Below, piece after piece: positions 2 through 34,024 of a DNA stretch of 64,000 bases. The translations under genes were made by a program, and so were the position numbers. The stretch lies in contig JBMNVW010000002.1 in NCBI GenBank assembly GCA_050947035.1, positions 4,820 to 68,819 on the forward strand. The letters are read 5' to 3'. Origin of the DNA: Patescibacteria group bacterium (GTDB lineage: Bacteria; Patescibacteriota; Microgenomatia; 0-14-0-10-38-17). The stretch's first letter is position 1; each line of letters begins with the position of its first letter. The notes beneath the pieces were generated by a model. That model was given only the letters and a program-made list of their open reading frames with translations, was not told where the DNA came from and did no database searches.

Positions 2-3000
2 ACTTCCCCCACCTTCAAGTTACAAATTGCCGGATCCGGCGATTTACTTTCCATTGGCGATACGGCCGGGAACACCTTCTTCTCGGTGACTGATTCTTTA
101 ATTACCTCAAATCTTCCCCATACCTTTACCTCAAGTGGGGATGTGAGTATGGCCTATGATTTAATTTTTACTAATCAAACTTCTGCCAAGATTGAATCAT
201 ACGGCCCCTTCTCTATTATTGCCGGGGAGTCTCATGAATCAAACAATCTGACTCTAAAGACTTACAATGCCGGAAAGTTAATTGTTGATTCGGCTAACTT
301 CTGGGTAGATAGTGCTAATGTCGGTATCGGTACTACCGACCCCGCCTACACCCTGGATGTTAATGGCGATATTGGTATTGCTTCTGGGTCTGATTTGTAT
401 CTTGGTGGAATAGGGTTGGGTGGGACCGGCGGAGCCGGGTTGGTAGGATTTGATAATGCCGGACTAAGTTATGTGACCTCCTCGACGGTTCAAGGAGGAA
501 TAGAAGATTTGGATGGGGCTATCAGTAGTGTTTCTGGGGAGATTAGATGGACCATGGATGGAGATAGTGGTACTCCTCAGATTGTGGGGGCGGGCCAAAC
601 CGCCAGTTGGGTGGGGGGAACGGGAATTAGTACAACAGTGGGAGCCGACAGACAACTAACCATTGACTTTGATACGACCTGGGGAGATGGTCGATACATT
701 CAAGATCAGTTTTCTTCGGCCCAAGATGCTGATTTCTGGATTGATGGAGTTGGGTTAGTGGGCACCAGGTTGGGGGTGGGCGCCACTCACCCCTCCTACT
801 CTCTTTACACCACTGGCAACTTAGGGGTGGGAGGAACGGCTTACTTTGCTGGCAACGTCGGGGTGGGGACGACTTCGCCCTGGAATTTCTTGGATGTTTC
901 CACCGGTTCATCAACAAATACCACCGGTGTTATTGTCGGCGCCACGTCAGGTTCTTCGACAAATAACGATGCAACACTAATTGGCTTTCGGCTTCGTAAC
1001 ACTAACAATGGTTTCATGAACAGTTCTAATTTATACGATGCTGGCATAGCCGGTATCGTAAACGGAACAGGAGTAAATAGATCGGCATTAGCATTTTACA
1101 CACGTCAATCGTCAGCGGCGGTAGTAGAAAGAATGAGAATTGACTATTTGGGCTCCGTCGGCATTGGTACCACTGATCCTGCCGCCCTCCTCTCAGTCGG
1201 CGCCACCTCTCAATTCAGGGTTGATAGCAGTGGTGATATTACCCGGATTAAGAACCTGGCCTACTCTTGGCCATCAAGCCATACTGCTGATGGATTCTTA
1301 CAAGATGATGGTTCAGGCAACCTGGCTTGGACTACCATTGCTGGAGCGGGTGGAGTAACTGGAACTGGTACCCAAAACTATTTACCTATTTGGTTATCAG
1401 GCGGATCTAGTTTGGGAGATTCCTCTATTTATGAATCAGGCAATAATGTGGGAATTGGCGGAACGGCCCCTAGCACTTCTCCCTCCCTGTACGTGGGAGC
1501 AGATGGTAATGTGGGGATAGGAACGACGGGGCCGGGGGCAAAACTACATGTTCAATATCCAAGCTCAGGCGATATTATTTTTGACGCCGGTACTGGTGAT
1601 GGTGCCTCAGACATGAATATCCAATATGGTTACAACGGCTATGGCTGGTATTGGAAGTATTTAGGCAGTGGCTCTGGTGATAACAATGAATTACAGTTGT
1701 GGAGTGAGGGGGCGGGTAGTACTGATCAACAAGCATACGGAATAAAACAAAGCGGCAAAATGACTTTTTATCAGGATGCCACCTTTAATGGTGATATTTT
1801 AATGACCGATGACGATTACATCGGTATTAGCGGTGCAGAAAGAATCCAATTTGATACTGCCGGACATATTGAAATGATGGGGGCAAATGTGGGAATTGGG
1901 ACGACGGAGCCGCTAACTAAACTAGATATAAGAGATACAAGTCCCAAAATACATCTTTATGACTCCACAGCGCAAACCCAAACAAATTACCTGCTTGGTT
2001 CAATTGTAGCTAGTAACGCCTATACTCCATCTATAGATCGCACAGCCGCTAGTATTGATTTTTATTCCAATGCATCTCAATGGTTTAAGGGCGAGATTGT
2101 TTTTAAAACTAACAACTCAGATAGTACCGCTAATGCGGCTGTGGAAAGGGTTAGGATAAATGCGGCAGGCAACGTCGGCATCGGCACCAGCAGTCCCTCT
2201 GGAGCCCTGCAAGTAGTTGATGATGAGGTGCGAATTGGCAGTGGGGGGACGATAAATTATGCTACCGGGGATGGGGATCTTTACGTCCAAGATGATCTGG
2301 AAGTGGATGGAATAATTTATGGCACAATCGAAGGTTCATTTACCCCTTCCGGTGACTTAGACATGAATGAACACATTATCACTAATATCGGCAATACCGG
2401 AACAGATTTTACTAGCGGCGGTGGATTAACCTTGGCTGGTGATTTAACTGTTTCCGGGGGTGATATTGCCTTGGGCACAACCAATATCTTCTCTGGTGGT
2501 GATACAACAAGCTTGAATAATATTGATGCTATCAATGCCACTACAGAAAGCACCCTAGAGGGGGCATTAGATTTAACTGGGAGAATCACAGGAACATTAA
2601 ATAGCAACTCTTTCACTGTTTCCACTGATTGGGGTGATGTTTCCACTGATGCTTCCGGCAATGTGCAAATTGACAGCAATGTGGTTGGGGCAACTGAAGT
2701 AGCCGATGATTCTCTTGATTTTGCTCAATTCGCTGACAGTATGAGCCTCGATAATTTAACTAAGATTGATCTTAGCTCCTATGACTTTGGCTTTTATGGA
2801 ACTGGCAATGTGGGGATTGGTACCACCACCCCTTCCTACAAACTAGACATAGCTGGCACTGGTACTCTCTTTAGAATTGCTTCAGGAGGAACTGACCTTT
2901 TTACTGTTACAGATTCACTGATTACCTCTAACCTACCCCATACCTTTACCTCCAGTGGGGATGTGAGTATGGCTTACAACCTTCTCTTTACTAATCCCGC

Positions 3001-6000
3001 TGCCTCTTATGTCCGCTCCTCTGCCCCGCTATATATTGAGGCCGGAGAAACCTATGGTTCTTCAAATCTAACCTTGAGAACTTATAACACTGGCGATATT
3101 ATTTTAGAAAGCGCTAATCTCTGGGCCGACGGGTCAAGTGTCGGCATCGGCACCACTGATCCTTCTCAAGAGCTACATGTAAATGGAGATATCAGAGTTA
3201 CCGGTGGGTATTATGATTCCGAAAACAGTATTGGCTCCAACGGCGATGTCTTAACTTCCACTGGAGTGGGAACAACCTGGTCGTCTGTTTCTGATTTATC
3301 GGTTGGTAATGCCGATACTCTAGATACTCTAGATTCAACTGATTTCTTAAGAGCCACTGCTTCTGATACCTTTGAAGCTGGTAATACCCTAACTATCAAC
3401 GGAGCTTTGGATGTTAATGGGGCAGTAACTTTGGGTGATGGTGGTGATGATATTTCTATTAATAGTGATGATTGGGATATCTCAAGTGCTGGGGTAGGGT
3501 CTGGCTTTACCCAATTTAATGTTGACAACCTAAGACTAGATGGTAATACGCTATCAGCTACTAATGCTTCTGGGCTATATCTTTATGATGATGGTTCAAA
3601 TGGAATCTTTATCGAGGATGGGGGGAACGTGGGGGTGGGGACAACAGGTCCGAACTCTTCTCTGCATGTTAATGGCATGATAACGACTAACTCTGGTTTC
3701 GGTCTTAGTTTCGCTAACTATCACAAAATTTATGAAAAATCGTATAGCGTGAGAACAAGCGATCCTGCCACCTTGGTTGACGAAAATGGAAGCCCATTTG
3801 ACGTGAATAAAAGTTATCGTGTTAGGGGCGTAGTAACTAGCACAGGGACACAAACAGGAGCTGTAGCTTACTTTTATGGCAATGGGTCATCTTTTAGCAT
3901 ATATAAAAACTACGAATCTGGTAATACTTCTAATCATATTGAATTTTACCTTGATTCCGGTACTCCGAAAGTGCGCCTTTTTGATCATACTAGTTTTTAC
4001 AACGTTTCTGTTTTGACAGAAGAAGTTATCAATAAAGGACGCATCGCAGGACCAGAAATGTTCATTTATGCATATGGCGGCGGCAACGTCGGCATCGGAA
4101 CGACGAATCCCGGATCTTACAAGCTAAACGTGGCTGGTAATACCTACATTGATGGGGCCCTAACTACTACCGGAGCCATAACCGCCCCAACTAGTACTAA
4201 TACTATTAATAACTTAGTAATTAACTCCGGGACAATTACCTCTGGCACCTGGCAAGCAACCGCCATTGCCCCTACCTATGGCGGCACTGGAGATAATACC
4301 TCTTCTACCACTGGCGTTCCTTACATTACCGCTGGTAATTGGCAGTATGAGTCGACCCTTGATGAAACTAGAGGTGGAACTGGTTTATCCTCCTACTCGA
4401 CTGGGGATTTGCTTTATGCTTCAGGAACCGATACTTTAGGCAATTTGGGTATTGGCACTACAGGCCAAATCTTGACTGTTTCTGGCGGAGTGCCGGTTTG
4501 GGCGGACTCTTCAGGATTAGGAACCGATGACCAAACCTTGGCAGAGGTATTAACAGAGGGTAATACTACTTCAGGAAACAATATTGTTATGAGTACTACT
4601 GATGAGTTAAGGTTCTATGATGATGATACTGATCAGCGAATCTATGCTAGTGCTGATGGTACTCTTAACATTGCCAGTACCAACCTGGCAATAGATACTA
4701 GCAGCTGGGATATTTCTACTGCCGGGGTAGGCTCTGGCTTTACCCAATTTAATGTTGACAACCTAAGACTAGATGGTAATACCCTATCAGCTACTAATGC
4801 TTCTGGGCTATATCTTTATGATGATGGTTCTAATGGAATCTTTATCGAGGATGGGGGGAACGTGGGGATTGGGACGACGGATCCGGGGGCAAAACTGGAA
4901 GTGGCCGGCAATTTAAAAGCCGATAAATTTGTTGACACCGCCGGCGGCGGCGCTTACTATCTTGACCCTGCCCACGGAACCATCTCACTTCTTACCGCCG
5001 GCAATGCCGGTATTGGCACTGTCAGCGCTGATTATAGATTAGATGTTCGGTCCGGAACCACAGACAATGTAGCAAAATTCTCCTCTTCTGATGATTTGGG
5101 TCAAATACTAATAGCCGATAATGATACCACCACCTATCTTGGCGCCAAAGACAGTAGGGCATTTTTGGGATCAAGCAGTGGTCTTTCGAGCAACAATTTA
5201 GTAATTAACAGCGATGGCAACGTTGGCATCGGGACGACCGATCCCTCATATGATCTCCACGTTGCTGGCGATTCCTACGCCAATAGATTTCTAGCTCCTA
5301 ACGGCACCCCGAGCAACCCTGTTTATTCCTTTTTTGCCAGCCCCACAACGGGTATTTTTAGAGGTTTTGCTATTAACGAAATAGGTTTTAGTAATTCCGG
5401 CAGCACCAGCATGTTGATCAATGCCGATGGCAACGTTGGCATTGGAACAACTGATCCTGATTATAATCTGGAAGTTTCCGGGACATTAGGAATTGGTTCT
5501 ACTGCTTATTTCGGCTCTTTCGTCGGCCTAGGGGTCGCTTCGCCCAACACAACCTTGCACGTCAAGGACACCCAGGACTATCAATTGCTGTTGCAAAATA
5601 ATGACAACACTACTGGGGACACCGCCGGCCTTCTCTTTAAAGTTGCTACTCTTGATACAGCAAACGCCAAGGGGGGAATTTTGTTTGAAAGGACAGGTTC
5701 CTACGGTCGAGGCAGTATTCATTTTGTTGCCAATAATGACGCCGCAAATAGTGACGCCGATCTTGATGATAAGGCAATGACCATTTATGCCGATGGTAAT
5801 GTTGGTGTCGGGACAACATCGGTTAATAGCCCTTTTGGTGTTTATGGACAAATAGCCTCTTTTTCTCACCCAACCGCCACCAGTGGTAATGTTGTCTCTA
5901 TTCAAGCTGGTACCGGCACAGGGGCCAGCGCCAACAGAATACGATATGGAGGATCTGGTAATAACAGTCATAATTTTGACATTCAGGGTCCAGGAGATAC

Positions 6001-8242
6001 CTTTCTCATATACGGCAGCACTTATGATTCAACTATCTACCGGGCCGGCTACAGCTCTAGTTGGAACACTCCTTCTGATCAGAGAATTAAGACTGAGATA
6101 AACACTCTTAGTGGTGCTCTAGAAAAAATTACTCAGCTAAATCCAGTTACATTTAAGTGGAAAGATGACTATCGAAATAGTATTAATACCAATCTAAAAG
6201 ACATAAATTACGGCTTTATTGCTCAAGAGGTCCAACGGGTCATGCCCCACATGGTAACAATAAAAGACTCACTTAGCTACGGTGACACCACCATTGAAGA
6301 CTTCTTAAATTTAGACACCAGCGATCTCACCCCCTACATAGTCAAGGCAATTCAAGAACAACAAAGCCAAATAAACAATATTTCTCAAAAAGTAACTCTG
6401 CTCAACAATGACCTTTCTGTTACCAATTCTGGCGATCTAAATATCGAAATTGTCGGCGATGATTACCAAGTTCATAACACCTCTACTAATAAAATTGTTA
6501 ATCGGATAGGCTCCTTCGGGGAAACAGTAATTGCTAAGGCTAGAGTCGGCCTAATCGAAACAACTAGCCTAATTGCCGATACGGTGACTACCCGCCGAGT
6601 TAAATCTGAAAAGCTTCTCTCCCCCATTATCGAGACGGAGGAAATCAGACTCAAAGCGCAAAATTCAAAACTCAAAACCACAACTCAAAACTCAAAATTA
6701 TCAATTGTTAATTCGGCCAACGAACCAACGGCTGAATTTGATACGGAAACTAAAACCACTACCCTATTTGGTGACTTAATAATAGAGCGCGGACTAAAGT
6801 CCGCTACTTCAGAATTTGAGAAAACTAAAAGCAAACAAGCCACTTTTGGCGATTTGCTGGCCCAAAACGTCGGCATCGGTCAATTAGAGGCCGAAAGTGT
6901 TAAAACCGAAGAACTAGACGTTGCCCAAGATGCCACTATCGCCGGCACTCTATATGTTGATCGGGTTGTGGCTCGAGATGGGGGCTTTGGCGAACTTTTG
7001 GCTAAAGACATTAGCATGGATAGTCTAAGATCAATTGTGAGGGAAGAAATGGAAAAGAACACTGAGAACACGAATAATATAAGCACTGAGGACACGAATG
7101 TAAGCACGAATGACACAGAAAATACAGATTCCGGATCGGAGTCCGGAATGACCGAGACCTCGGAGTCCGAAATGACGGATGAAGAGATGGATATTGAAAG
7201 TTTGTTAGCCGAAGTGGAGGGCTGGCTAAATCTAAACACGGATAGTGATTTAGTCGTTGGTGAAGAAACAGCCATCCCTGAAAATCAAATTAACGCCATT
7301 GCCGATAATTTTATTCATCAGGGAGATTTAACTATCTTGGGACAAACGACTGCCAATAACGCTCTAATTACTGGACAATTAATTATTGGCGATTTAACTT
7401 TGGCTGATAACAGTATTAGCAACCTTAACGGCAACCTCTATCTGCAAAAAGAAGGCTTGGGCGGTTTGGATGTTTTAAATGGCAAGTTTATGATTGATAC
7501 CGAAGGCAACGTTTTTATCGCTCAACACCTAACAGTTAGCGGTGATTTAATGGCCGGAAAAATTAAACCCAAAGAGGGAGAGGATTTGGTTTTGGATTTG
7601 ATTAATAGTGTGGGACAGGGAGAGGATGACAATGAGGACACGAATGGGGACACGAATCAAACGAACGATGAAGAAAATGACACTGAGGATACGAATATTA
7701 ATACGAATAACGCAGAGAACACGCTAGAAGAAACAGGGTTTGGGAAACTGCTCGTCAAAGGAGCCAATCAAGAAACAGTCGCTCAAATTGATGCTTCCGG
7801 TTCAGCTCAATTTGCCGGCACGGTTAGGGCTGATAGCCTGGCCATATCAAAACCGGAAAATAGTCAAGAAGACATTGTTATCGCCGCCTCAGAAAATTTT
7901 GACCAGGTTAACATCTGGGCCCCGGGGATTACCAGCAACGCTTCGGCCGGCCAGGCCAGTCTTCCTGTCGGTCAAACCGATTTAATTATTTACAACAACC
8001 GACTAGTTGATGAATCAATGGTTTATCTTACCCCTACCTCTGACACCCAAAACCAGGTTCTTTATGTTAAAGCGAAAGTAGCGAAAAAGAACACTGAAGA
8101 CACGAATGGGAACACAAATGACACAAATAGTAATACGAATATCGACACAAATGACACGAACAATGATAAGAGTTACTTTGTGGTGGGGATAAACCAGTCC
8201 ATTAACGAAGAGGTGAAATTTAATTGGTGGATAATAAACTAA
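2..8242 (+). CDS. Giant repetitive surface/tail-fibre-like protein, 5'-partial (reading frame open to window edge). It has many G(N)VGIGTT(D/S)P repeats and a C-terminal peptidase S74 intramolecular chaperone domain, followed by acidic (D/E)TN-rich tracts.
   Basis: There is no in-frame stop from position 2 to the listed start at 86, which is a GTG. The upstream translation TSPTFKLQIAGSGDLLSIGDTAGNTFFSVTDSLITSN parallels the internal repeat around nt 2830-2930. More than 20 NVGIGTT motifs are present. The S74 signature SDQRIKTEINTL...NPVTFKWKDD...YGFIAQEVQ lies at about nt 6060-6400. Confidence 0.8.
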   Translation, partial: TSPTFKLQIAGSGDLLSIGDTAGNTFFSVTDSLITSNLPHTFTSSGDVSMAYDLIFTNQTSAKIESYGPFSIIAGESHESNNLTLKTYNAGKLIVDSANFWVDSANVGIGTTDPAYTLDVNGDIGIASGSDLYLGGIGLGGTGGAGLVGFDNAGLSYVTSSTVQGGIEDLDGAISSVSGEIRWTMDGDSGTPQIVGAGQTASWVGGTGISTTVGADRQLTIDFDTTWGDGRYIQDQFSSAQDADFWIDGVGLVGTRLGVGATHPSYSLYTTGNLGVGGTAYFAGNVGVGTTSPWNFLDVSTGSSTNTTGVIVGATSGSSTNNDATLIGFRLRNTNNGFMNSSNLYDAGIAGIVNGTGVNRSALAFYTRQSSAAVVERMRIDYLGSVGIGTTDPAALLSVGATSQFRVDSSGDITRIKNLAYSWPSSHTADGFLQDDGSGNLAWTTIAGAGGVTGTGTQNYLPIWLSGGSSLGDSSIYESGNNVGIGGTAPSTSPSLYVGADGNVGIGTTGPGAKLHVQYPSSGDIIFDAGTGDGASDMNIQYGYNGYGWYWKYLGSGSGDNNELQLWSEGAGSTDQQAYGIKQSGKMTFYQDATFNGDILMTDDDYIGISGAERIQFDTAGHIEMMGANVGIGTTEPLTKLDIRDTSPKIHLYDSTAQTQTNYLLGSIVASNAYTPSIDRTAASIDFYSNASQWFKGEIVFKTNNSDSTANAAVERVRINAAGNVGIGTSSPSGALQVVDDEVRIGSGGTINYATGDGDLYVQDDLEVDGIIYGTIEGSFTPSGDLDMNEHIITNIGNTGTDFTSGGGLTLAGDLTVSGGDIALGTTNIFSGGDTTSLNNIDAINATTESTLEGALDLTGRITGTLNSNSFTVSTDWGDVSTDASGNVQIDSNVVGATEVADDSLDFAQFADSMSLDNLTKIDLSSYDFGFYGTGNVGIGTTTPSYKLDIAGTGTLFRIASGGTDLFTVTDSLITSNLPHTFTSSGDVSMAYNLLFTNPAASYVRSSAPLYIEAGETYGSSNLTLRTYNTGDIILESANLWADGSSVGIGTTDPSQELHVNGDIRVTGGYYDSENSIGSNGDVLTSTGVGTTWSSVSDLSVGNADTLDTLDSTDFLRATASDTFEAGNTLTINGALDVNGAVTLGDGGDDISINSDDWDISSAGVGSGFTQFNVDNLRLDGNTLSATNASGLYLYDDGSNGIFIEDGGNVGVGTTGPNSSLHVNGMITTNSGFGLSFANYHKIYEKSYSVRTSDPATLVDENGSPFDVNKSYRVRGVVTSTGTQTGAVAYFYGNGSSFSIYKNYESGNTSNHIEFYLDSGTPKVRLFDHTSFYNVSVLTEEVINKGRIAGPEMFIYAYGGGNVGIGTTNPGSYKLNVAGNTYIDGALTTTGAITAPTSTNTINNLVINSGTITSGTWQATAIAPTYGGTGDNTSSTTGVPYITAGNWQYESTLDETRGGTGLSSYSTGDLLYASGTDTLGNLGIGTTGQILTVSGGVPVWADSSGLGTDDQTLAEVLTEGNTTSGNNIVMSTTDELRFYDDDTDQRIYASADGTLNIASTNLAIDTSSWDISTAGVGSGFTQFNVDNLRLDGNTLSATNASGLYLYDDGSNGIFIEDGGNVGIGTTDPGAKLEVAGNLKADKFVDTAGGGAYYLDPAHGTISLLTAGNAGIGTVSADYRLDVRSGTTDNVAKFSSSDDLGQILIADNDTTTYLGAKDSRAFLGSSSGLSSNNLVINSDGNVGIGTTDPSYDLHVAGDSYANRFLAPNGTPSNPVYSFFASPTTGIFRGFAINEIGFSNSGSTSMLINADGNVGIGTTDPDYNLEVSGTLGIGSTAYFGSFVGLGVASPNTTLHVKDTQDYQLLLQNNDNTTGDTAGLLFKVATLDTANAKGGILFERTGSYGRGSIHFVANNDAANSDADLDDKAMTIYADGNVGVGTTSVNSPFGVYGQIASFSHPTATSGNVVSIQAGTGTGASANRIRYGGSGNNSHNFDIQGPGDTFLIYGSTYDSTIYRAGYSSSWNTPSDQRIKTEINTLSGALEKITQLNPVTFKWKDDYRNSINTNLKDINYGFIAQEVQRVMPHMVTIKDSLSYGDTTIEDFLNLDTSDLTPYIVKAIQEQQSQINNISQKVTLLNNDLSVTNSGDLNIEIVGDDYQVHNTSTNKIVNRIGSFGETVIAKARVGLIETTSLIADTVTTRRVKSEKLLSPIIETEEIRLKAQNSKLKTTTQNSKLSIVNSANEPTAEFDTETKTTTLFGDLIIERGLKSATSEFEKTKSKQATFGDLLAQNVGIGQLEAESVKTEELDVAQDATIAGTLYVDRVVARDGGFGELLAKDISMDSLRSIVREEMEKNTENTNNISTEDTNVSTNDTENTDSGSESGMTETSESEMTDEEMDIESLLAEVEGWLNLNTDSDLVVGEETAIPENQINAIADNFIHQGDLTILGQTTANNALITGQLIIGDLTLADNSISNLNGNLYLQKEGLGGLDVLNGKFMIDTEGNVFIAQHLTVSGDLMAGKIKPKEGEDLVLDLINSVGQGEDDNEDTNGDTNQTNDEENDTEDTNINTNNAENTLEETGFGKLLVKGANQETVAQIDASGSAQFAGTVRADSLAISKPENSQEDIVIAASENFDQVNIWAPGITSNASAGQASLPVGQTDLIIYNNRLVDESMVYLTPTSDTQNQVLYVKAKVAKKNTEDTNGNTNDTNSNTNIDTNDTNNDKSYFVVGINQSINEEVKFNWWIIN

Positions 8243-8274
8243 ATTTCTAATTACTAATTTCTAATCAAATCCCA

Positions 8275-8643
8275 ATGACCAATGATCAAAAAAAATATGA
8301 CTTGGAGGAAAGAACTGCTCGCTTTGCTGAAAATGTCATTCGATTCTGTAAAACAATCAAAATTAACGACATCAATCGACCTTTAATTAGTCAATTAATT
8401 AGGGCTAGTACTAGCATAGCCGCTAATTACTGCGAGGCTGATGATGCTGAATCAAGGAATGATTTTAAACATAAGATTGGTATTTGCAAAAAAGAGGCCA
8501 GAGAATCTAAAAGTTGGTTAAGAATGCTAGTCGTTGCTAATCCGGAAACAAAAAAAGAAGCAAGAAGGCTTTGGCAGGAAGCGAAAGAGCTTCACTTAAT
8601 CTTTAACGCTATCACTCATTCCACTAACAAAAACAAAAAATAA
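8275..8643 (+). CDS. Four-helix-bundle protein of the 23S rRNA intervening-sequence protein family, located outside the rRNA genes.
   Basis: The protein is 122 aa and its sequence (ERTARFAENVIRFCKTI...ASTSIAANYCEA...KEARESKSWLRM) is typical of this family. It is flanked by inverted AT-rich arms: aaatttctaattactaatttctaat upstream and attagtaattagtaattagaaatt downstream. Confidence 0.7.
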   Translation: MTNDQKKYDLEERTARFAENVIRFCKTIKINDINRPLISQLIRASTSIAANYCEADDAESRNDFKHKIGICKKEARESKSWLRMLVVANPETKKEARRLWQEAKELHLIFNAITHSTNKNKK

Positions 8644-8748
8644 TGATTTGTTGGACATTTGGATTTAGACATTGACTAGAAATTAGTAATTAGTAATTAG
8701 AAATTCTTCTCCGTCCCTGTTCGTATCTTTCGTGTGCTTTTAGTATTA

Positions 8749-10950
8749 TTATTCTGTCGGGGTGGTTTCTGGGGTTTCCTCTACCTCTTCTTCCGGAGAA
8801 ATAATTTCCTCTTCGGTCGACTCTTCTAAAACCGGCTCAGGAGGAGCAATGTCTTCTTCAGGTAAATCAACTGGTTCAAATTGGGGTTCGGGAAGAGCTT
8901 GAGGTGGTTCCAGCTGTTCGTTCACTTCTTCTTCACCTTCAACCGGCTCTTGTTGAGGCAAACGGTCTTTAATTTGTTCTAAATCTTGCTGAACTCGATC
9001 AAAATCGGCTGAACCCGGCTCAACCAAAGAAAGCACCGTTTGTAATTGCAAGGCGGCGTCAGTCCATTTTTCTTGCTGGACATAAGCGGCGGCCAAATTG
9101 TAATGAGCGTTGGCATGGTCGGGTTTTAAATTAACCGCTGTTTCAAACTGCCGCTGGGCCAACTCAAAATTACCCAAAGCAAAATAAAGCCCACCCAGCT
9201 CTACCCGTAAATTAGGATTAACCGGATCCAAGGCAATTGCTTGACTTAGTGACTCAATTGCCCATTGCTCGGCCTCTTGGGCGACACCAATAATTTGCCG
9301 ATAAACATCAGCCAGACTTGCCCAATTGTTAGACCAAAAAGGGTTAATCGCTACCGCGTTTTTGGCTTCCCTAATAGCCTGCTGAATAAGAATAGCAATT
9401 TGTTGTTGGTCTTGTTCAGTCAAATTTTCATTTTGAGAAAAAGTACCAGCTAGAGCAAGATTGGTTTGAGCATAACCAAGACGGTAAGTATCAGAATGAG
9501 GATTTTTTTCTAGGGCTTCAATCTGCCAATTATAAGCATTACCGCCTTCACCTCGATTAAAAGCGGCTACGGAACGAGCAAATAAAACATCAGCCCAAGC
9601 TGCTCGACCATACCAAAAACCAGAAAACAATAAAGCACCAGCTAAAATTATTAACAAAATATAGCGATTTATCTCTAGCTTTGGCCTAACTTCTCCTAAA
9701 CCAACCCCGCTACTCTCGTCCGACAAGCCAACCAAACTTAGCAAAACAAAGAAAACTAGCCACAGACTAATGTCAAAGGGAACAAAAAAAGCAATAACTA
9801 ACAATAGCAAAACCAAAATTTCCGGACGAGCATTTATTATCCGGTTATCAGCATCTTTAAGCTTTCGCCAAATAGATACGGCTAAGCCCGAAAAAGCCAA
9901 TAGTCCTAATAGGCCAACCTCAGTTAAAAGATTTAGATAATGTCCAAAAGAGTTAGCAAAGTAAATTGCCCAAGCCGAGGTGTTATTAACCGTTACAGGA
10001 CGAAAACGAGCGTAAGCGGTTCGAAAATTGCCCGGACCAACACCAAAAATAGCCCCAACAAAACTTTTAAAATTCTCTACGGCCACAATCCAAGCATTTT
10101 GCAAGCCAATTAAAACCGGCTCTGACTCTAGTAAGACAACCACTCCCATTACCACCCCTAAAGCCAAAATGATCAATAGGGCCAGCAAGCCGATTAGGCT
10201 GGTTAATTTAAAGTCTTTTTTTATCAATCTTAATAAGGCCAATAAAACATAAACGGCCGCCAAAACAATTAAAACAATTGTTGTTAAGATTGACCCTGTT
10301 GGCGTCCAAGTGTTAATAGAAAAAATCTCCCAAGTAAAAAACTTAGCCAAAAAGCCAGTATATTGAAAAACTGTTAACAGCGCTAAGACTACTGCCGAAG
10401 CGGTTAAGGCGCCGAACATCAATCTTTGTGTCTTTTTGGCTTCCTTGCCCTCTCCCCTAACCTGCTTAATTAACAGCATTAACAGGAAACCGGCCAAAAC
10501 GACGGCCGTTGTTTTAGAAAAAGCATTAATCCTGGCCGAAACATTGGGTTGTAAAAAAGAGGAAATAACAAAAGCCAAAACCAAAAGTAAGCCAAAAACT
10601 AAAACTTTTTTATTGTCAAAAAAAATCGTTTGGTTATTATTTTCGCTTTTACCAAGGACGACCGGCAATAAAAAAGCCACCCAACCAAGCAAAACACCCA
10701 AAATAAAAAGTATGGTCTTGGGTAAAACGTAAACACTAAATAAAGAAGGAATAAAGATGAGAGGAACTAAAAAAGTAATTAAGGCTAACCAATATTTTAA
10801 GTATTTCATTTTTGAAGAAGACTTTATCTTTGAGGCAGTTCTGGCAGACTTGACACCCAGGGTGTCATTAAGTGTTTCCCCCATTAGCTTAATACTATAA
10901 CATTTTTGATGGGGCGTCAATAATATATAAACCCAAAGCACAAAATCCAA
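8749..10950 (-). CDS. Polytopic membrane protein with an O-antigen-ligase-like (Wzy_C) domain, C-terminal TPR repeats, and an acidic proline/glutamate-rich tail.
   Basis: Multiple transmembrane segments; the motif FGHYLNLLTEVGLLGLLAF fits the Wzy_C H-N-x-x-L...E-x-G pattern; TPR-like repeats (AHYNLAAAYVQQEKWTDA) near the C-terminus. Confidence 0.6.
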   Translation of the reverse strand: MDFVLWVYILLTPHQKCYSIKLMGETLNDTLGVKSARTASKIKSSSKMKYLKYWLALITFLVPLIFIPSLFSVYVLPKTILFILGVLLGWVAFLLPVVLGKSENNNQTIFFDNKKVLVFGLLLVLAFVISSFLQPNVSARINAFSKTTAVVLAGFLLMLLIKQVRGEGKEAKKTQRLMFGALTASAVVLALLTVFQYTGFLAKFFTWEIFSINTWTPTGSILTTIVLIVLAAVYVLLALLRLIKKDFKLTSLIGLLALLIILALGVVMGVVVLLESEPVLIGLQNAWIVAVENFKSFVGAIFGVGPGNFRTAYARFRPVTVNNTSAWAIYFANSFGHYLNLLTEVGLLGLLAFSGLAVSIWRKLKDADNRIINARPEILVLLLLVIAFFVPFDISLWLVFFVLLSLVGLSDESSGVGLGEVRPKLEINRYILLIILAGALLFSGFWYGRAAWADVLFARSVAAFNRGEGGNAYNWQIEALEKNPHSDTYRLGYAQTNLALAGTFSQNENLTEQDQQQIAILIQQAIREAKNAVAINPFWSNNWASLADVYRQIIGVAQEAEQWAIESLSQAIALDPVNPNLRVELGGLYFALGNFELAQRQFETAVNLKPDHANAHYNLAAAYVQQEKWTDAALQLQTVLSLVEPGSADFDRVQQDLEQIKDRLPQQEPVEGEEEVNEQLEPPQALPEPQFEPVDLPEEDIAPPEPVLEESTEEEIISPEEEVEETPETTPTE

Positions 10951-11003
10951 AAAGAGAATTCAAAATTAAAAAAACACATCTTATGGCTTTGGTTTTCTTT
11001 TCC

Positions 11004-11171
11004 GAACGGGATTCTTCGGGAGTACCCTCAGAATGACGTCTTTTTTCGTCATCCTGGGGATCTTCTCTTCCTCGTCATCCTGAGCCCCCCACCCCCGTCA
11101 TCCTGAGCGTCAGCGAAGGATCCCGTCCGAGAAGAGTCTCCAGATTCTTCGGGAGTACCCTCAGAATGACG
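11004..11171. repeat. Cluster of MITE-like hairpin repeats (family A, terminal inverted repeats cgtcatcctgag / ctcagaatgacg), located upstream of the GIY-YIG gene.
   Basis: Copies of gattcttcgggagtaccctcagaatgacg and cgtcatcctgag(c/g) were read directly. A complete 76-bp element spans 11096-11171. Confidence 0.7.
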
Positions 11172-11203
11172 ATACGTGACAAAAATATGCTAATTTAAAT
11201 CTA

Positions 11204-11491
11204 ATGAAAGTAATCGCCACGTATATCTTAACCAATAAAAGAAATACCGTTCTCTACATCGGTGTTACCAGCGATTTAATAAAAAGAATTTGGCAACATA
11301 AAGAAAAACTAGTTGCGGGTTTTACCCGCAAATACAACATTAACAAATTAATCTATTACGAGGTTTTTGATAATATCCGAGAAGCAATAAAAAGAGAGCG
11401 ATATTTAAAAGGCAAAAAAAGGCAGTACAAAATTAATTTAATTAGAAAAAAGAACCCCAAGATGAAAGATTTGTATCCGGATTTATTGTGA
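11204..11491 (+). CDS. Small stand-alone GIY-YIG (URI-domain) nuclease family protein.
   Basis: The sequence KVIATYILTNKRNTVLYIGVTSDLIKRIWQHK...YYEVFDNIREAIKRERYLKG matches the GIY-YIG signature. The gene is bracketed on both sides by family-A repeats. Confidence 0.7.
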   Translation: MKVIATYILTNKRNTVLYIGVTSDLIKRIWQHKEKLVAGFTRKYNINKLIYYEVFDNIREAIKRERYLKGKKRQYKINLIRKKNPKMKDLYPDLL

Positions 11492-11496
11492 AAAAG

Positions 11497-11699
11497 AGAT
11501 TCTTCGGGAGTACCGTCAGAATGACGGGGTTGGTGTGTGTCATCCTGAGGCCGCTTCTAGCCTTCGTCATCCTGAGGCCGCTTCAAGCGACCGAAGGATC
11601 TCAGGGGATTCTCGGACGGGGTTCTTCGGGAGTACCCTCAGAATGACGGGGTGGAAGAACGGGACTCTTCGTCCGCCAGCTGGCAAATTCAGAATGACG
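11497..11699. repeat. Second cluster of family-A MITE-like repeats, immediately downstream of the GIY-YIG gene.
   Basis: The motifs gattcttcgggagtaccgtcagaatgacgg, cgtcatcctgaggccgcttc(t/a)ag and ttcttcgtccgccagctggcaaattcagaatgacg were read directly. Confidence 0.7.
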
Positions 11700-11747
11700 A
11701 AAGAAAAAAGCCTTAGAATAACGAGAAAATTATAATTTTTAGGTTTT

Positions 11748-20061: not shown

Positions 20062-20182
20062 TGCTTTGGCTATGACCTATTTTCTCGCCTCCTTGCGGAA
20101 GACAATATCGTCAGCGCTATCGCGTTTCACTTCTGAGTTCGGAATGGAATCAGGTGGTACCACGACGCTCCAATAACCAAAG
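20062..20182 (-). rRNA. rrf: 5S rRNA.
   Basis: The reverse complement reads ...CCACCTGATTCCATTCCGAACTCAGAAGTGAAACGCGATAGCGCTGACGATA..., matching the conserved 5S core. Confidence 0.8.
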
Positions 20183-21075
20183 CAAGTTTTATTTTAACAA
20201 AAATTTTCTTTTAGTAAAGCTTAATCTACTCTTTGTTAGAACAAGAATGTTTTTTTCTCTTTTTTTTAGTCATTTAGGAATTAAGTTTTTTCACATCCAA
20301 ATTCGATCGATTAGTACTGGTCAGCTGAATTCGTTGCCGAACTTACACTTCCAGCCTATCAACCAGGTAGTCTTCCTGGGATCTAAGACTCCTCATCTTG
20401 GAGTAGGCTTCCCGCTTGAGATGCTTTCAGCGGTTATCCATTACAAACGTAGCTACCCAGCTTGCCGCTGATGCGACAACTGGCCCACCAGAGGTTTGTC
20501 CATCCTGGTCCTCTCGTACTGAGGACAGATCTCCTCAAGAGTCAAAACGATTACTGCGGATAGAGACCGAGCTGTCTTACGACGCTCTGAACCCAGCTCA
20601 CGTAGGATTTTAATGGGCGAACAGACCAACCCTTGGAGACTTCTTCATCTCCAGGATATCCTGAGCCGACATCGAGGTCGCGAACTGGCCCGTAGATGTG
20701 TACTCTCGGGACCAACCACGCTGTTATCCCCGGGGTAGCTTTTATCCGTTAAGCCCTGGCTTCATCCATAGAAGCACAGGGGATCACTAAGACCTGCTTT
20801 CGCACCTGCTCGACCCGCCGGTCTTGCAGTCAAGCTGGCTTGTGCCTTTACACTTTCCTCCCGATTTCCATCCGGGATAAGCCAACCTTTGTGCGCTCGC
20901 GTTACTTTTTAGCAAGCGACTGCCCCAGTCAAACTACCCACCAGGCACTGTTCCTAAGTTCGTATCCAGAACTTCCAGGTTAGAACTGAATTTAATGAAG
21001 AGAGGTATTCCACTGGCGACCGAAGTCTCCCTCCTATTCTCGACAGTCATTAAATACAATTCAATGCCAAGTTGT

Positions 21076-21106
<31 letters not shown>

Positions 21107-21427
21107 AGTAATTAGGCCGCATCTTCACAGCCATTTCAATTTCGCCGAGTAGAGGTTTGTAGACAGTTGTTCGGTCGTTGGGCCTTTCATACAGGTCGGA
21201 ACTTACCCGACAAAGGACTTCGCTACCGTAGAACAGTTAGAGTTACTGCTGCCGTTCACCGGGGCTTCAATTCTCCGCCCGCATTTTTTCCGAAGAAAAA
21301 ATGAGAACAAAGTCATTTAACCTTCCGGCACTGGGCAGGCTTCAGCCCCTATACCTCCTCTTTTGGAGTTTGCAGAGACCTGTGTTTTTGGTAAACAGTC
21401 GCCGAACAATCTTTAGCTGAGACCCAT

Positions 21428-21631
21428 CTCGCCCACAGGACGAGAAAATCCTAAAGGATTAAACTCTAAATTCTAATTTCTAAAATCCAAACAATAACTA
21501 AATTCTAAATTCCAATGTTCCAAACAGATTATTTGTTTCGAATTTGGAATTTGGAAAATTAGGATTTGTTTGGGATTTCGGATTTCGGATTTAGAATTTT
21601 CTAGAATTTCCTTGTCCTATGGACAAGACAG
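21428..21631. repeat. IVS-like insertion (a) in the 23S. It is AT-rich, with ttctaaattccaa-type repeats, and is capped by the hairpins ctcgcccacaggacgag and cttgtcctatggacaag.
   Basis: It aligns at about 85-90% with the tRNA-Ala/23S spacer element at 24073-24249. Confidence 0.7.
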
Positions 21632-22177
21632 GCAGGGCATCTTGTGACCTTACGCCCAGCTTGTTTGCCGAGTTCCTTAAACCTCTTTCTCTCGCTCGCC
21701 TTGGTCTTCTCGACCTACCCACCTGTGTTGGTTCTTGGTACGATTTTTGTAAACTCTCACTGCGACACTTTTCTCGGAAGATAAAATCAGCTAATTGAAT
21801 CAAAAAAGATTCTCTTCATCGTAAGCTTGACATTAACGAACCGGCGGATTTGCCTACCAGTCCTGCCTTGCTACTTAAACGACAGCAACATCAATCGCTG
21901 CGCTAGCATTATCTGTCTCCGTCATGACCCAGTTAATAACGATTTTACAAAAGTACAGGAATATCAACCTGTTATCCATCCACTACCCAAGTAAAACTTG
22001 GCTCATGTTAGGATCGACTAACCCCCTGACGACGAACGTTGCAGGGGAAACCTTAGGTTTTCGGCGGTCTGGATTCTCACCAGACTATTTGCTACTCATG
22101 CCAGCATTCTCACTTCCGAACGCTCCAATAAACCTCACAGTTTATCTTCACCGCCTTCGGAACGCTCCCCTACCACC

Positions 22178-22316
22178 TCGCCCCCTGGGCGAGAAACTCC
22201 AAATATTCTAAATCCAAAATCCAAATAATATTGATCTGATAGGTCTTATTGGACCTATGTTTGTGGAAATTGAAAATTTGAAATTTGAAATTTCTTGTCC
22301 AAAAGACAAGGTCTGG
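22178..22316. repeat. IVS-like insertion (b) in the 23S, at the approximate helix-45 position. It contains the palindrome tctgataggtcttattggacc.
   Basis: AT-rich gaaatttgaaattt repeats end in the hairpin cttgtccaaaagacaag. Confidence 0.65.
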
Positions 22317-22945
22317 AACTTCGGTATGTAGCTTAATCCTCGATCATCTTCGGCGCTAACTTTCATCGGCCAGTGAGCTGTTACGCTTTCTTTAAAGGAT
22401 GGCTGCCTCTAAGCCAACCTCCTGGGTGTCTTTGAAAACTAACTACCTTAACAACTTAGCTACAATTTAGAGACCTTATTTGCCAGTCTGGGATGTTTCC
22501 CTCTCGCCTTATCAGTTTAGCCCGATAAGACTGACTCTCTTGTCTTGCCTTTGGTATTCGGAGTTTGATTGATATCAAGACCTTTAAGACCCTGAGACCA
22601 TTCAGTGCTCTACCCCCAAAGACATCTAAACAAGAGGCTATACCCATATATATTTCGGGGAGAACCAGCTATCACCAAGCTCGATTGGCATATTACCTCT
22701 AACCACAAGTCGTCCAAGCCTTTTGCAGCAGACATTGGTTCGGGCCTCCTCCTACCTCTCGGTAAAATTCACCCTGCTCATGGTTAGCTCGCCTGGTTTC
22801 GGGTCCCCCGCTCTTTGTTTATTCGGTTAAAAACCGAAAACGCCCTGTTAAGACTTGGTTTCCCTATGCCTCCACCATAAAAATGGCTTAAACAACACAA
22901 AGGACGAGGACTCGCTGGCTCATTCTTCAATAGGCACGGCATTAC

Positions 22946-23098
22946 CCGTTCTCCGAACGGGAAGCTCCAATTTCCAATTAAGCCAATTTCCAAACAAATT
23001 CCAAATAACAAATCTTCAAAATTGAAAATTAAAGCATTTTTAGAATTGATTGGTCATTGGTAATTGGTGGATTGAAAATTCCTGTTCGAAGAACAGGC
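22946..23098. repeat. IVS-like insertion (c) in the 23S, at the approximate helix-25 position.
   Basis: It begins with cccgttctccgaacggg, contains AT-rich ccaatttccaa repeats, and ends in the hairpin cctgttcgaagaacagg. Confidence 0.65.
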
Positions 23099-23392
23099 TT
23101 TGCCTGCTTGTTAGCAAACGGTTTCAGGTACTATTTCACTCCCCTTCCGGGGTGCTTTTCACCTTTCCCTCACGGTACTATTCACTATCGGTCGACAAAA
23201 GTATTTAGTCTTGGCTAATGGTTCAGCCGGATTCACACAAAGTATGTTCATTGTGTTACTTGGGAAAACTAGCTTGTTTTTATTTTGGTTTCGTATACCA
23301 GGCTTTCACTGTCTTTGGCCACCTATTCCAAAATGTTCTACTACCAAAACAAAAAACAAATATGCTTGCCTCCCACAACCCCCACCTCGTGC

Positions 23393-23563
23393 ACAGCACG
23401 AGAAAATCCCAAAATCCAAACTCCAAAATCCAAACAAATCCCAAAATGATCAAATATTCAAAATTCTAAAAAATAGTTAGAACATTGAGAATTTAGACAT
23501 TGGAAATTGATTGAAAATTGAAAATTGAAAATTGAAAATTCCTTGTGCTATGCACAAGACAGG
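23393..23563. repeat. IVS-like insertion (d) in the 23S 5' domain.
   Basis: It begins with ctcgtgcacagcacgagaaaatcc, contains (gaaaatt)n repeats, and ends in the hairpin cttgtgctatgcacaag. Confidence 0.65.
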
Positions 23564-23990
23564 TTTAGACTATTCCGATTTCGCTCACCGCTACTGACGG
23601 AATCGCTATTGCTTTCTCTTCCTCCGGGTACTAAGATGTTTCAATTCCCCGGGTAACCTCTATATGCGAAGCATATAGTCCGTCGTGTTGCCACGACAGG
23701 GGTTCCCCCATTCGGAAACCATCGGATCAACGGTTGCTTGGCACCTACCCGACGATATCGATCGCCTGCGACGTCCTTCCTCGGCTTTTGTCACCTAGGC
23801 ATCCACCGTTTGCGTTAATGGATGTGAAAAAACCTAATTCCTTGACTAATAATTAAAAAGAGCGAAAAAAAATTAACTTTTAAAAGTTAAAATTCTTGCT
23901 CTAACAAAGAATAGATTTTTTTCAAATCTATCTAATTACATGACAAAAACAATTTATCAAAGTGCTTTAGCTCTTTTTTAAAAACAGTGC

Positions 23991-24067
23991 TGGTGGAGCT
24001 AACCGGAATCGAACCGGTGACCTCCACATTGCAAATGTGGCGCTCTATCCAGCTGAGCTATAGCCCC
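23991..24067 (-). tRNA. tRNA-Ala (TGC).
   Basis: The reverse complement is GGGGCTATAGCTCAGCTGGATAGAGCGCCACATTTGCAATGTGGAGGTCACCGGTTCGATTCCGGTTAGCTCCACCA. It has the G3:U70 pair, anticodon TGC, and an encoded CCA. Confidence 0.85.
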
Positions 24068-24072
24068 TCATG

Positions 24073-24249
24073 CTCGCCCACAGGGCGAGAAATCCTAAAT
24101 TCTAATTTCTAAAATCCAAACAAGATCTAAATTCTAAATTCCAATGTTCCAAACAGATTATTTGTTTTAGGTTTGGAATTTGAAAAATTAAAATTTGTTT
24201 AGGATTTCGGGTTTTGAATTTAGGGTTTTCCTTATCCATAAGGATAAGG
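24073..24249. repeat. IVS-family element in the tRNA-Ala/23S spacer; paralogue of IVS (a).
   Basis: Its structure is gctcgcccacagggcgagaaatcctaaattctaatttctaaaatccaaaca...ccttatccataaggataagg. Confidence 0.7.
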
Positions 24250-24543
24250 TTGGGCTAAATTAAAGAGCTTGCTCTAATACGAAGAAGAAATTTTGCTCGT
24301 TAACAAAATTTAGGAGCCCAAAAGGGGGCCAACTAAAGTTATATTTTGGTCAACAGAAAACATATAATTTCTTCTCATTAAAGCAAAGCTTATTATATAG
24401 ACGAGGCTTATCTTTGTCAATAATGCGCTAGTCCAATTTTTTTCGAAGTAGCGAACTTTAGTTCGCGCTAAAAAACGAACAGATCTAGACTTACCGTTTT
24501 AGACAAGAACTGGAGATGCTTCTTTGGTCTGTCAGTTATATTT

Positions 24544-24610
24544 GGTGCACGCGCCTGGACTCGCCATGCCCGCCGATAGCCGCAGCCTGAGCCGTATACG
24601 AACAGTATTG
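24544..24610 (-). pseudogene. Relic of a duplicated tRNA: a degenerate copy of the tRNA-Ile 3' acceptor/T-arm sequence.
   Basis: The 20 bases ggtgcacgcgcctggactcg at 24544-24563 are identical to the tRNA-Ile 3' end at 24679-24698. Downstream sequence retains only patchy similarity (cctgagcc). Confidence 0.4.
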
Positions 24611-24679
24611 AAAAGGCGAACGCTAAGGCAAGGCGGGAACCAGGGACCGGTCGCCCCAGGCGACCGCTCAACCTTTCTA

Positions 24680-24754
24680 GTGCACGCGCCTGGACTCGAA
24701 CCAGGGACCTCGTCTTTATCAGAGACGCGCTCTAACCACCTGAGCCACGCGTGC
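24680..24754 (-). tRNA. tRNA-Ile (GAT).
   Basis: The reverse complement is GCACGCGTGGCTCAGGTGGTTAGAGCGCGTCTCTGATAAAGACGAGGTCCCTGGTTCGAGTCCAGGCGCGTGCAC. The anticodon loop CTGATAA gives anticodon GAT. Confidence 0.85.
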
Positions 24755-25040
24755 GAAATTAGTCGTTAGTCTTTGGTCTTTAGCTGTTAGTTTCTTTATC
24801 TTTACATTGACAATATCTTTTTTTTCAATTTTCCAATATTCTAATATTTCCTATAATACCACAAAGCTAATCTGACTCCTCTTTTTCTCCATCAAAAAAC
24901 CCCGCCTATTCCTGGCGGGGTTATTTTTTGGCATTCCGAATGTGGTAGGAAAATTAAATCAAAACATCCGTTGACATTTTGATTTTAGAAAAATGTTTAA
25001 AGTCCTTCCACCGTGAGAGGCAAAAAGACTATCTCTCCTA

Positions 25041-27232
<2,192 letters not shown>

Positions 27233-27481
27233 AAAAAAAGAATTTCCGGAATTAAAAATAGGCTTATTGCTTAATTTTAAACCGGACCCCGACGATATCA
27301 AACAAGATCGATATCCGACCGGGGATTTCCTACCACATTCTGAATGCCAATATTTAAATTAACATTATTTTTGTCTGTTAAGTAAACCAAAATGTCAAAG
27401 AGCCAAAAAAGAAGAAAACACCTTAAAATAAGGCAAACATTATCTTATCATGAAGATAGGATGAAGTAAAGATAAGGGCCT

Positions 27482-33942: not shown

Positions 33943-34024
33943 CTTAATAAAATTTCTAATTACTAATTACTAATTTCTAATTTTTATTCAATTCTTAATG
34001 AAATTATTGTTAGATTGTTAAATT

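Follow-up and report, generated by a model that had tools for sequence, protein, structure and literature searches.

An Avd-like four-helix-bundle gene between inverted heptamer arrays is probably an exchangeable cassette of operon spacers

This work concerns a gene for a four-helix-bundle (FHB) protein in a 64,000-nt stretch of the genome of a Patescibacteria group bacterium (contig JBMNVW010000002.1), the whole of which we call the window. We consider it probable that positions 8242-8705 are a complete copy of a widespread small-gene cassette, in which the FHB gene is enclosed by inverted terminal arrays, and that this cassette was acquired by exchange, is transcribed by read-through and has arms that pair in the transcript. 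The proposed arms consist of 7-9-nt units and measure about 55 nt each, the start codon included. An initial annotation had placed an element resembling a 23S rRNA intervening sequence (IVS) at 8243-8710; the location was right, and the limits are corrected here to 8242-8705.

Read in order, the region runs from the stop codon of a giant gene (TAA, 8240-8242) through AATTTCTAATTACTAATTTCTAAT and CAAATCCCA to the ATG at 8275, then through an open reading frame (ORF) of 122 codons to 8643 and TGATTTGTTGGACATTTGGATTTAGACATTGACTAGAAATTAGTAATTAGTAATTAGAAATT to 8705. The 5' arm begins on the final base of the giant gene's stop codon, and the stop codon of a convergent membrane-protein gene lies at 8749, 44 nt beyond the end of the 3' arm. 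Tandem Repeats Finder (TRF) reports both arms as period-7 tandem arrays, with 3.4 copies of AATTTCT at 8242-8265 and 4.1 copies of TAGAAAT at 8677-8705. The AATTTCT array ends 9 nt ahead of the ATG, and the 5' arm includes both the start codon and the first six codons. Segments 8242-8265 and 8682-8705 form an inverted repeat of 24 nt that is 96% complementary; when the register is shifted by one heptamer (7 nt), 8242-8293 pairs with 8647-8698 over 52 nt at 75% complementarity. No inverted repeat within 600 nt anywhere in the 64 kb is longer than these two. The predicted duplex between the arms has 57 pairs and an energy of -44.5 kcal/mol, compared with -18.6 for dinucleotide shuffles (z -6.2). 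Both the inverted AT-rich arms and the position between the giant gene and the membrane-protein gene had been described in the initial annotation, and both descriptions hold. The arm sequences also recur in the window: the 17-mer AATTTCTAATTACTAAT occurs 25 times with at most 3 mismatches (1.0 expected), and the 3'-arm array (8677-8705) is 100% identical over 29 nt, inverted, to 33951-33979. Rfam gave no match at E up to 1 in 8150-8800.

The assignment of the 122-aa product to the IVS-protein family, also made in the initial annotation, is well supported. Profile hidden Markov model searches matched it to TIGR02436 (79.7 bits, E 1.7e-22; cut-off 24) and to PF05635, 23S_rRNA_IVP (55.4 bits; cut-off 33.8), in both cases above the curated cut-offs. 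It matched PDB entry 2rld at E 8e-13 from sequence and at 8e-17 with a 28-sequence profile. An AlphaFold2 model built on the homologue alignment (pLDDT 91.5) has four long helices (4-26, 34-56, 61-88 and 90-119), and Foldseek aligned this model with 2rld (TM 0.73-0.87), 2gsc (Xcc0516; TM 0.73-0.84) and Avd (4dwl; TM 0.67-0.77), a protein of diversity-generating retroelements (DGRs). The 2rld entry comprises five chains; we modelled the window protein as a monomer. The conserved motif of the family, GxxRxxxSxxxNxxE (PMC3936711), is represented in the window protein by QLIRASTSIAANYCEA, in which R-x3-S-x3-N-x2-E is present and Q replaces G. Among 28 homologues, 38 alignment columns are invariant, including S47, N51 and E54 (alignment numbering) of RxxxSxxxNxxE. 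A comparison with the 92%-identical copy at locus L081 gave dS 0.72, dN 0.038 and dN/dS 0.053, values indicating that the FHB protein is under strong purifying selection, as expected of a translated gene in use. It had no match in PADLOC or PHROGs and so does not belong to a listed defence or phage family, and tblastn found no second FHB copy or pseudogene in the 64-kb window and none inside its IVSs. FHB relatives number more than 8,000 at 90% clustering, and the PF05635/TIGR02436 family forms 6,916 clusters at 50% identity (E up to 0.001). To our knowledge, in 30 years no function has been attached to this family beyond "found in some 23S IVSs" and "related to Avd". Among homologues, the N-terminal segment ahead of the KYDLEERTA core differs in length (e.g., MTND.., MTNDKMTK.., MSNQFLMTNDKMTK..). 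Its codons come from the AATGAC-type units in the 5' arm, and thus arm repeat number alters the protein N-terminus.

We compared the window cassette with 86 fetched homologous loci, 80 from genomes and 6 from metagenomes, of which 79 non-redundant loci served for arm tests and 78 for neighbour orientation. The FHB homologues at these loci share 60-92% protein identity with the window protein, and their hosts include many phyla of the candidate phyla radiation (CPR) and metagenome-assembled genomes labelled Planctomycetota, Verrucomicrobiota, Bacteroidota, Ignavibacteriales, WOR-3 and others. Those at 60-72% identity come from many CPR phyla and from Planctomycetota, Verrucomicrobiota and Bacteroidota, among other groups. 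Nearly all 79 loci have array-type arms around the FHB gene, with 7-9-nt units of the form CTAATTnn(n) or, in G+C-rich hosts, GAATGAC/TAATGAC. The family pattern is a 5' run followed by CAAATCCCA-ATG and, past the stop codon, TTGGGATTTGATTAG followed by the complementary run. We rejected a chance juxtaposition of two independent spacer arrays because paired arms recur around the gene at nearly all of these loci. The median complementarity score of a locus's own arms is 41, compared with 18 for same-strand alignment and 16 for flanks 260-400 nt further out; RNAduplex gave a median of -37.6 versus -18.7 kcal/mol, with z < -3 at 80% of loci. When the 5' arm of one locus is matched with the 3' arm of another, the median score is 35, and own pairs are better (Mann-Whitney p 2e-6). 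Since arms from different loci still score 35, the arms constitute a conserved sequence family. Arrays are 37-fold denser in cassettes (108 in 55.6 kb) than in flanks (32 in 611.6 kb). Divergent FHB paralogues (34-55% identity) are enclosed by inverted arrays of other heptamers, such as AATTATC and AAAATCA, so the architecture is conserved more deeply than the unit sequence. A second divergent FHB copy lies within 4 kb at 7 loci, and other genomes contain ORF-less doublets that keep both arms and a CAAATCCCAATG core (e.g., L003 8155-8290 and L007 985-1115).

The cassettes have a well-defined habitat. The upstream neighbour is co-directional with the FHB gene at 65 of the 78 loci and the downstream neighbour likewise at 65 of 78, departing from 50:50 at roughly p 1e-8. 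The 5' arm starts a median of 1 nt past the upstream stop codon, and the 3' arm ends a median of 9 nt before the next start, typically in the form ...TTAGAAATT(T) followed by 4-10 nt and the downstream ATG, with no Shine-Dalgarno (SD) motif. FHB cassettes thus fill stop-to-start spacers of co-directional genes, in sense orientation and with no recognisable promoter of their own. In a published example, IVP genes interrupt cas operons (PMC3936711). At two loci, GxxExxY genes with their own inverted arrays lie 1-2 kb from FHB cassettes (L053 3435-6785; L001 3395-4784). L053, a Phycisphaeraceae chromosome, has two that flank the FHB gene, and L001 has one. Such neighbours suggest clusters of different small-gene cassettes.

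The initial annotation had regarded the family as one normally found inside 23S IVSs, a view that reflects the family name. None of the 86 homologous loci has an rRNA gene within 5 kb, in a search whose positive control on the window worked, and the usual setting is between two protein genes. It is thus more likely that the inference should be turned round, with a spacer cassette sometimes landing in rRNA. Operon spacers are the usual home of the IVS-like cassette and rRNA is an exceptional landing site. A survey of CPR rRNA genes found 23S_rRNA_IVP ORFs in some 16S and 23S insertions, with ORF-containing and ORF-less versions at the same sites (PMC11270868). That study shares our host group and covered rRNA genes only, whereas the window cassette and all 86 fetched loci lie outside rRNA; the 16S gene of the window, like those in the survey, has an insertion, which carries a LAGLIDADG_3 ORF. 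The apparent insertion in this minus-strand gene is about 700 nt long and lies near the 3' end (window 25042-25787): the Rfam 16S match stops at 25759, yet the terminal AGATCACCTCCTT is found at 25042-25054, and a 222-aa LAGLIDADG_3 homing-endonuclease ORF (25119-25787, 45.7 bits) lies inside the insertion.

We next consider the same chromosomal site in relatives. With the downstream membrane protein, which carries tetratricopeptide (TPR) repeats, as anchor, three syntenic metagenome contigs (L087, L088 and L089) were found, all without the FHB gene. Nucleotide identity to the window over aligned blocks is 79-97% for L087 and 69-84% for L088 and L089. In L087 and L088, the equivalent spacer holds the decayed gene of a RAYT-type Y1 transposase. 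Once its frameshift is bridged, the L087 ORF matches PF01797 at 25.1 bits (cut-off 23), and homologues bear the JGI name "REP element-mobilizing transposase RayT". Intact RAYT-type genes occupy the same position in L090-L095, one of these loci being named Shapirobacteria. The RAYT-type genes examined (L087, L088, L090 and L093) are preceded by an FHB-type module consisting of a stop codon, a heptamer array, CAA(A/G)(T/C)CCCA and ATGACCAATGA(T/C)CAAAAA (MTNDQK), and they diverge from the FHB gene only after codon 6; the FHB gene of L081 is preceded by the same 5' module as that of the window. L088 retains a remnant of a 3' arm, and the intact RAYT copies at this site have the 5' array only. L089 instead carries a GxxExxY / PDDEXK_3 gene (103.5 and 95.9 bits), which has inverted arms of its own made of CRGGATAA-type units. 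Based on these comparisons, the site between the giant gene and the TPR membrane gene is a hot spot in this lineage, at which the window FHB cassette is a replacement allele, and the shared 5' module makes recombination through the array the simplest route of replacement. The downstream context of L081 differs from that of the window. A comparison of L081 with L082 as alternative right-hand contexts was dropped, as the two proved to be one sequence (99.55%) in which genes had been called differently. In L087, the closest relative, the RAYT-type gene is interrupted and is followed by G+C-rich REP-like hairpins (region 8035-8330, minus strand; ACGGGCGCGAAGA..CCCGAC..), similar in style to repeats around a GIY-YIG gene of the window described below.

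The window also offers close relatives of the arms (Table 1). Its rRNA operon spans 20064-27238, with the 23S gene on the minus strand at 20289-23827, and insertions were mapped by alignment to E. coli rrlH. The 23S gene carries four ORF-less IVSs, together roughly 600 nt, each composed of a short G+C clamp and complementary period-7 arrays. We assigned helix names from E. coli numbering and take helices 25 and 45 to be classical IVS sites. The antisense strand of the helix-25 IVS aligns with the 5' arm at a score of 44 versus 15.8 for shuffled sequence (z 10.9), and the sense strand of the helix-63 IVS aligns with the 3' arm at z 6.8, both figures coming from mononucleotide shuffles and being somewhat generous. 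These alignments indicate that the ORF-less 23S IVSs and a similar hairpin between two tRNA genes are miniature relatives of the cassette arms. Together with the TRF results, they agree with the claim of the initial annotation that the arms, the 23S IVSs and arrays near gene starts are one kind of sequence. Period-7 arrays make up 33 of the 99 TRF rows in the window, almost all of them intergenic or in rRNA insertions, and their units are varied (AATTTCT, TTTGGAT, AAAATCC, ATTGAAA, TTAGACT, TAGTATT and others). Five solo arrays in the orientation of the 3' arm end 1-13 nt ahead of the starts of ordinary minus-strand genes. We dropped the idea that all solo arrays are miniature cassettes, since three of the five, with z of -0.1 to -1.3, do not form hairpins by themselves.

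Table 1. Positions of the cassette, its neighbours and array-containing features in the window.
Feature	Positions	Strand	Description
FHB protein gene (TIGR02436 / PF05635; Avd / "S23p" / IVS-protein family)	8275..8643	+	122 aa, ATG start
5' arm	8242..8293	+	array AATTTCT/AATTACT/AATTTCT (8242-8265), then AATCAAATCCCA, then start codon and first six codons ATGACCAATGATCAAAAA
3' arm	8647..8705	+	TTTGTTGGACATTTGGATTTAGACATTGAC, then TAGAAAT x4.1 array (8677-8705); inverted complement of 5' arm
Upstream neighbour (giant gene)	86..8242	+	2718-aa repeat-rich surface-type protein, Peptidase_S74 chaperone domain
Downstream neighbour	8749..10809	-	convergent polytopic membrane protein, C-terminal TPR repeats; synteny anchor
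23S IVS, helix 25 (after E. coli 546)	22952..23090	-	ORF-less heptamer-array hairpin; closest relative of the cassette arms in the window
23S IVS, helix 45 (E. coli 1163-1176)	22184..22312	-	ORF-less; GC clamp with AATTTCA and TTTGGAT arrays
23S IVS, helix 63 (E. coli 1712-1735)	21438..21627	-	ORF-less; strong fold (z -4.3)
23S IVS, E. coli 274-289	23347..23561	-	ORF-less; AATTTTC and TTTGGAT arrays
Copy of helix-63 IVS between two tRNA genes	24095..24230	-	outside any rRNA helix; 89% over 136 nt; fold z -5.5
Solo array	33951..33983	-	3'-arm orientation, TTAGAAA/TTAGTAA units; 8 nt upstream of start of gene 33055-33942
Solo array	47556-47586		3'-arm orientation; before a minus-strand gene
Solo array	51466-51489		3'-arm orientation; before a minus-strand gene
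Solo array	53880-53896		3'-arm orientation; before a minus-strand gene
Solo array	61434-61458		3'-arm orientation; before a minus-strand gene

The gene starts of the window are themselves unusual. An SD-like motif at -20..-4 is present in 2 of 37 window genes (long ORFs), though the 16S 3' end carries CACCTCCTT. Many starts instead have a TATAAT/TAAAAT-like box 5-10 nt ahead, or the TTAGAAATT end of a heptamer array. These features suggest widespread leaderless or SD-independent initiation in this lineage, and one could speculate that leaderless genes use the arrays as -10-like boxes.

To account for the cassette, we propose a model with several steps. The cassette would have arrived by DNA-level exchange, most simply by recombination via the shared array module. 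The giant gene is the probable source of read-through transcription into it, as we infer from the lack of a terminator-like site between the giant-gene stop and the FHB start. A scan for sigma-70 promoters and intrinsic terminators found nothing in the arms or in that interval, with counts not above shuffles. In the transcript, pairing of the arms would give a duplex that covers the start codon and is at least 24 bp long, with up to 57 pairs. This duplex may be a natural RNase III substrate, by analogy with the ORF-bearing 23S IVS of Coxiella, and the FHB protein could bind structured nucleic acid as Avd does, possibly its own arms. A DNA-level role of the arms, whether as terminal repeats, as single-stranded hairpins for an HUH enzyme or as recombination pads, is at least as likely as an RNA-selected stem.

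The analogy with known IVSs is close in several respects. The 23S IVS of Coxiella burnetii has a 28-bp terminal stem and three tandem GACAGAT heptamers immediately ahead of the S23p start, with RNase III cleavage at the first of these heptamers (PMC4990558). The ORF-bearing 23S IVSs of Leptospira and Coxiella encode the same protein family as the window cassette, a long stem of terminal inverted repeats likewise surrounds the ORF, and they coexist with short ORF-less versions. In both the Coxiella and the window systems, tandem heptamers lie directly upstream of the start codon, and the start codon falls inside the stem. The differences are that the window cassette lies between two protein genes rather than in an rRNA helix, and that its units are AT-rich (AATTNCT). 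Furthermore, RNase III cutting has been mapped in Coxiella and is a prediction for the window cassette, and the strong purifying selection on the window gene contrasts with the reported decay of the Coxiella ORF.

Several observations weigh against the proposed cassette, or against parts of the model. No target-site duplication was seen when the flanks (AAACTA|...|CTTCTC) were read by eye, the element encodes no transposase, no mobility machinery is found in or adjoining it, and it is the single cassette copy in 64 kb. We found no truly empty orthologous site; what the relatives show is replacement rather than clean presence or absence, with a RAYT-type or GxxExxY gene where the FHB gene is missing. 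The shared 5' module could equally reflect a RAYT gene that invaded an older FHB cassette. The near-equal pairing of arms from different loci (35 versus 41) may mean that the "stem" is just two copies of a conserved DNA motif. Although the arm stem closes the minimum free energy fold of 8230-8720, the z-score of the whole region is only -2.2. Arm mismatches across loci include 75 G-U and 102 A-C on the sense strand (p 0.05 in the opposite direction), and without an excess of sense-strand G-U wobble, RNA-level selection on the stem is not demonstrated. Lastly, the solo arrays before ordinary genes may indicate that arrays are host expression signals merely contained in the cassette. The initial proposal of a mobile IVS cassette is therefore partly supported, in that exchangeability and site polymorphism stand. 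The event at this site is not a clean insertion, and any transposition mechanism for the cassette is hypothetical. Measured against transposable elements, it has inverted repeats conserved among copies and differently occupied orthologous sites, and shows neither a target-site duplication nor a linked transposase. Measured against rRNA IVSs, it has the enclosing stem and the Coxiella-type heptamers before the start codon, and is not inserted in an rRNA helix.

A different explanation is that the cassette is a non-autonomous element of a RAYT system. Here the arrays would be the REP (repetitive extragenic palindromic)-like substrates, in this lineage, of a RAYT-type HUH Y1 transposase, and the FHB and GxxExxY cassettes, the ORF-less hairpins and the rRNA IVSs would be REPIN-like doublets, either empty or with cargo, mobilised in trans as single-stranded DNA hairpins. 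The cassette resembles REP/REPIN-RAYT systems in that a small gene is flanked by inverted short repeats that are also dispersed in spacers as hairpin doublets and solo copies, and in that a RAYT-type gene stands at the exact site behind the same array in relatives, with a remnant of a 3' arm in L088. In addition, CRGGATAA-type inverted arrays lie on either side of P0128, a RAYT-type gene (L096-L098), as they do around the GxxExxY gene of L089, and arm mismatches that lack an RNA wobble signature are compatible with a DNA-level hairpin. Weighing on the other side, a RAYT homologue is found neither in the window nor within 5 kb of any of the 79 FHB loci, the RAYT-type gene in L103 has no arrays, the intact copies at our site carry an array on one side only, and the case rests on few loci. 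The cargo in the window is not a transposase, and the arms are tandem 7-9-nt arrays rather than single palindromic REPs. Unlike REP sequences, which are usually confined to one lineage, they are conserved from phylum to phylum, and there is no known cleavage motif or activity for the arrays. We consider this explanation attractive but unlikely. We also note that the array-flanked RAYT-type gene of L096-L098 adjoins a LysM-M23 gene, and that a LysM-M23 gene also neighbours the window's GIY-YIG spacer.

We also considered whether the FHB protein could be a resident regulator rather than the cargo of a mobile element. In this case, a host protein would bind heptamer arrays that serve as expression signals before many genes, and the arms would be autoregulatory sites and the leader of the next gene. 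TAACTGA heptamer repeats directly upstream of SD-less start codons have been described in Beggiatoaceae, cyanobacteria and Bacteroidetes and proposed to be regulator binding sites (PMC4679880). The window solo arrays and the 3' arms similarly end a few nucleotides before SD-less starts; they differ in unit sequence, and arrays of the window type are also found inside rRNA and, paired in inverted orientation, around a specific gene family. The five solo arrays so close to start codons of ordinary genes, the 3' arms that end TTAGAAATT(T) shortly before an ATG, the scarcity of SD-like motifs, the purifying selection on the FHB protein and the binding of RNA stem-loops by Avd are all consistent with this reading. 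A resident regulator would not be expected to be missing from three syntenic relatives with unrelated small genes in its place. A selfish gene, or one that moves horizontally, better accounts for identities of 60-72% across distant phyla and for several divergent copies within 4 kb. There are also ORF-less doublets that have both arms, and the window 3' arm faces the 3' end of a convergent gene and hence cannot serve as a leader there. We judge a purely regulatory origin to be improbable.

CPR genomes are rich in DGRs, and in phage BPP-1 avd is located after mtd. The FHB gene could by comparison be an orphan or remote Avd subunit of a DGR that diversifies the giant surface protein, given its place directly after a giant surface-type gene and its fold match to Avd. 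PF05635 has been treated as Avd-like, in one superfamily with Avd (PMC10053308), and Avd binds RNA stem-loops (bioRxiv 10.1101/2023.10.23.563531), a documented feature of Avd that accompanies the four-helix-bundle fold shared by the two proteins. HMMER does not find 4DWL, sequence similarity being too low. We rejected a DGR role as highly improbable, because none of the neighbours examined over about 12 kb downstream (genes for the TPR membrane protein, LysM-M23, Rho, RadA, S1 and LytR) encodes a reverse transcriptase and the 8 kb upstream are the giant gene. In addition, the repeat search showed no template/variable repeat pair near the FHB gene, which unlike avd sits in an inverted-array cassette, its downstream neighbour is a convergent membrane gene, and in 78 other loci the FHB gene sits in unrelated operon spacers.

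Two further small-gene units and one neighbour in the window deserve description. On the far side of the TPR membrane gene, 10991-11711 contains a 95-aa GIY-YIG nuclease ORF (11204-11491, plus strand; PF01541, 62.4 bits) flanked by G+C-rich repeat modules in direct and inverted orientation (TTCTTCGGGAGTACCCTCAGAATGACG x4 and GTCATCCTGAG x5). This ORF with its flanking repeats is a second small-gene cassette beside the membrane gene. Elsewhere, an inverted repeat of 20 nt with 95% complementarity (37343-37362 / 37753-37772) encloses a 128-aa DUF5654 ORF (37342-37728), whose first codons form the left arm. Besides the Peptidase_S74 chaperone domain, the giant protein upstream of the FHB gene has GIGTT-type repeats and, at its C-terminus, a domain of about 110 aa that ends ...FNWWIIN. 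This C-terminal domain also ends a 396-aa gene (L081 2909-4099) upstream of the L081 FHB gene (30% identity, E 2e-17), and both closest cassette copies thus follow a gene with that ending.

Returning to the cassette that we favour, the finding means that the FHB gene travels as a defined unit with array-type inverted arms, mainly in operon spacers, and that RAYT-type transposase and GxxExxY nuclease genes have arms and insertion sites in common with this unit. We found no literature linking FHB genes to array-type inverted arms, to a mainly operon-spacer habitat or to RAYT/REPIN, and none connecting RAYT/REPINs with IVSs, within a literature coverage that was incomplete. An annotation curiosity thereby becomes a testable element, one that generalises to a very large family of unknown function. 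For annotators, it is a warning that FHB cassettes split operons in CPR and other genomes. It also offers a concrete origin for rRNA IVSs and suggests a candidate partner for intergenic heptamer repeats. At its furthest reach, and as a proposal that we hold to be doubtful, all of these parts could belong to a single undescribed mobile-DNA system. Its mobile module would be the heptamer hairpin arms, its alternative cargo FHB/Avd-like, GxxExxY, RAYT-type and perhaps GIY-YIG genes, and its array-recognising factor a RAYT-type enzyme and/or a pentameric FHB protein. Such a system would leave ORF-less doublets and solo arrays in operon spacers, and in tolerant rRNA helices its insertions would become IVSs excised by RNase III. 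If true, this single system would explain both the origin of bacterial rRNA IVSs and the enigmatic heptamer repeats found before genes.

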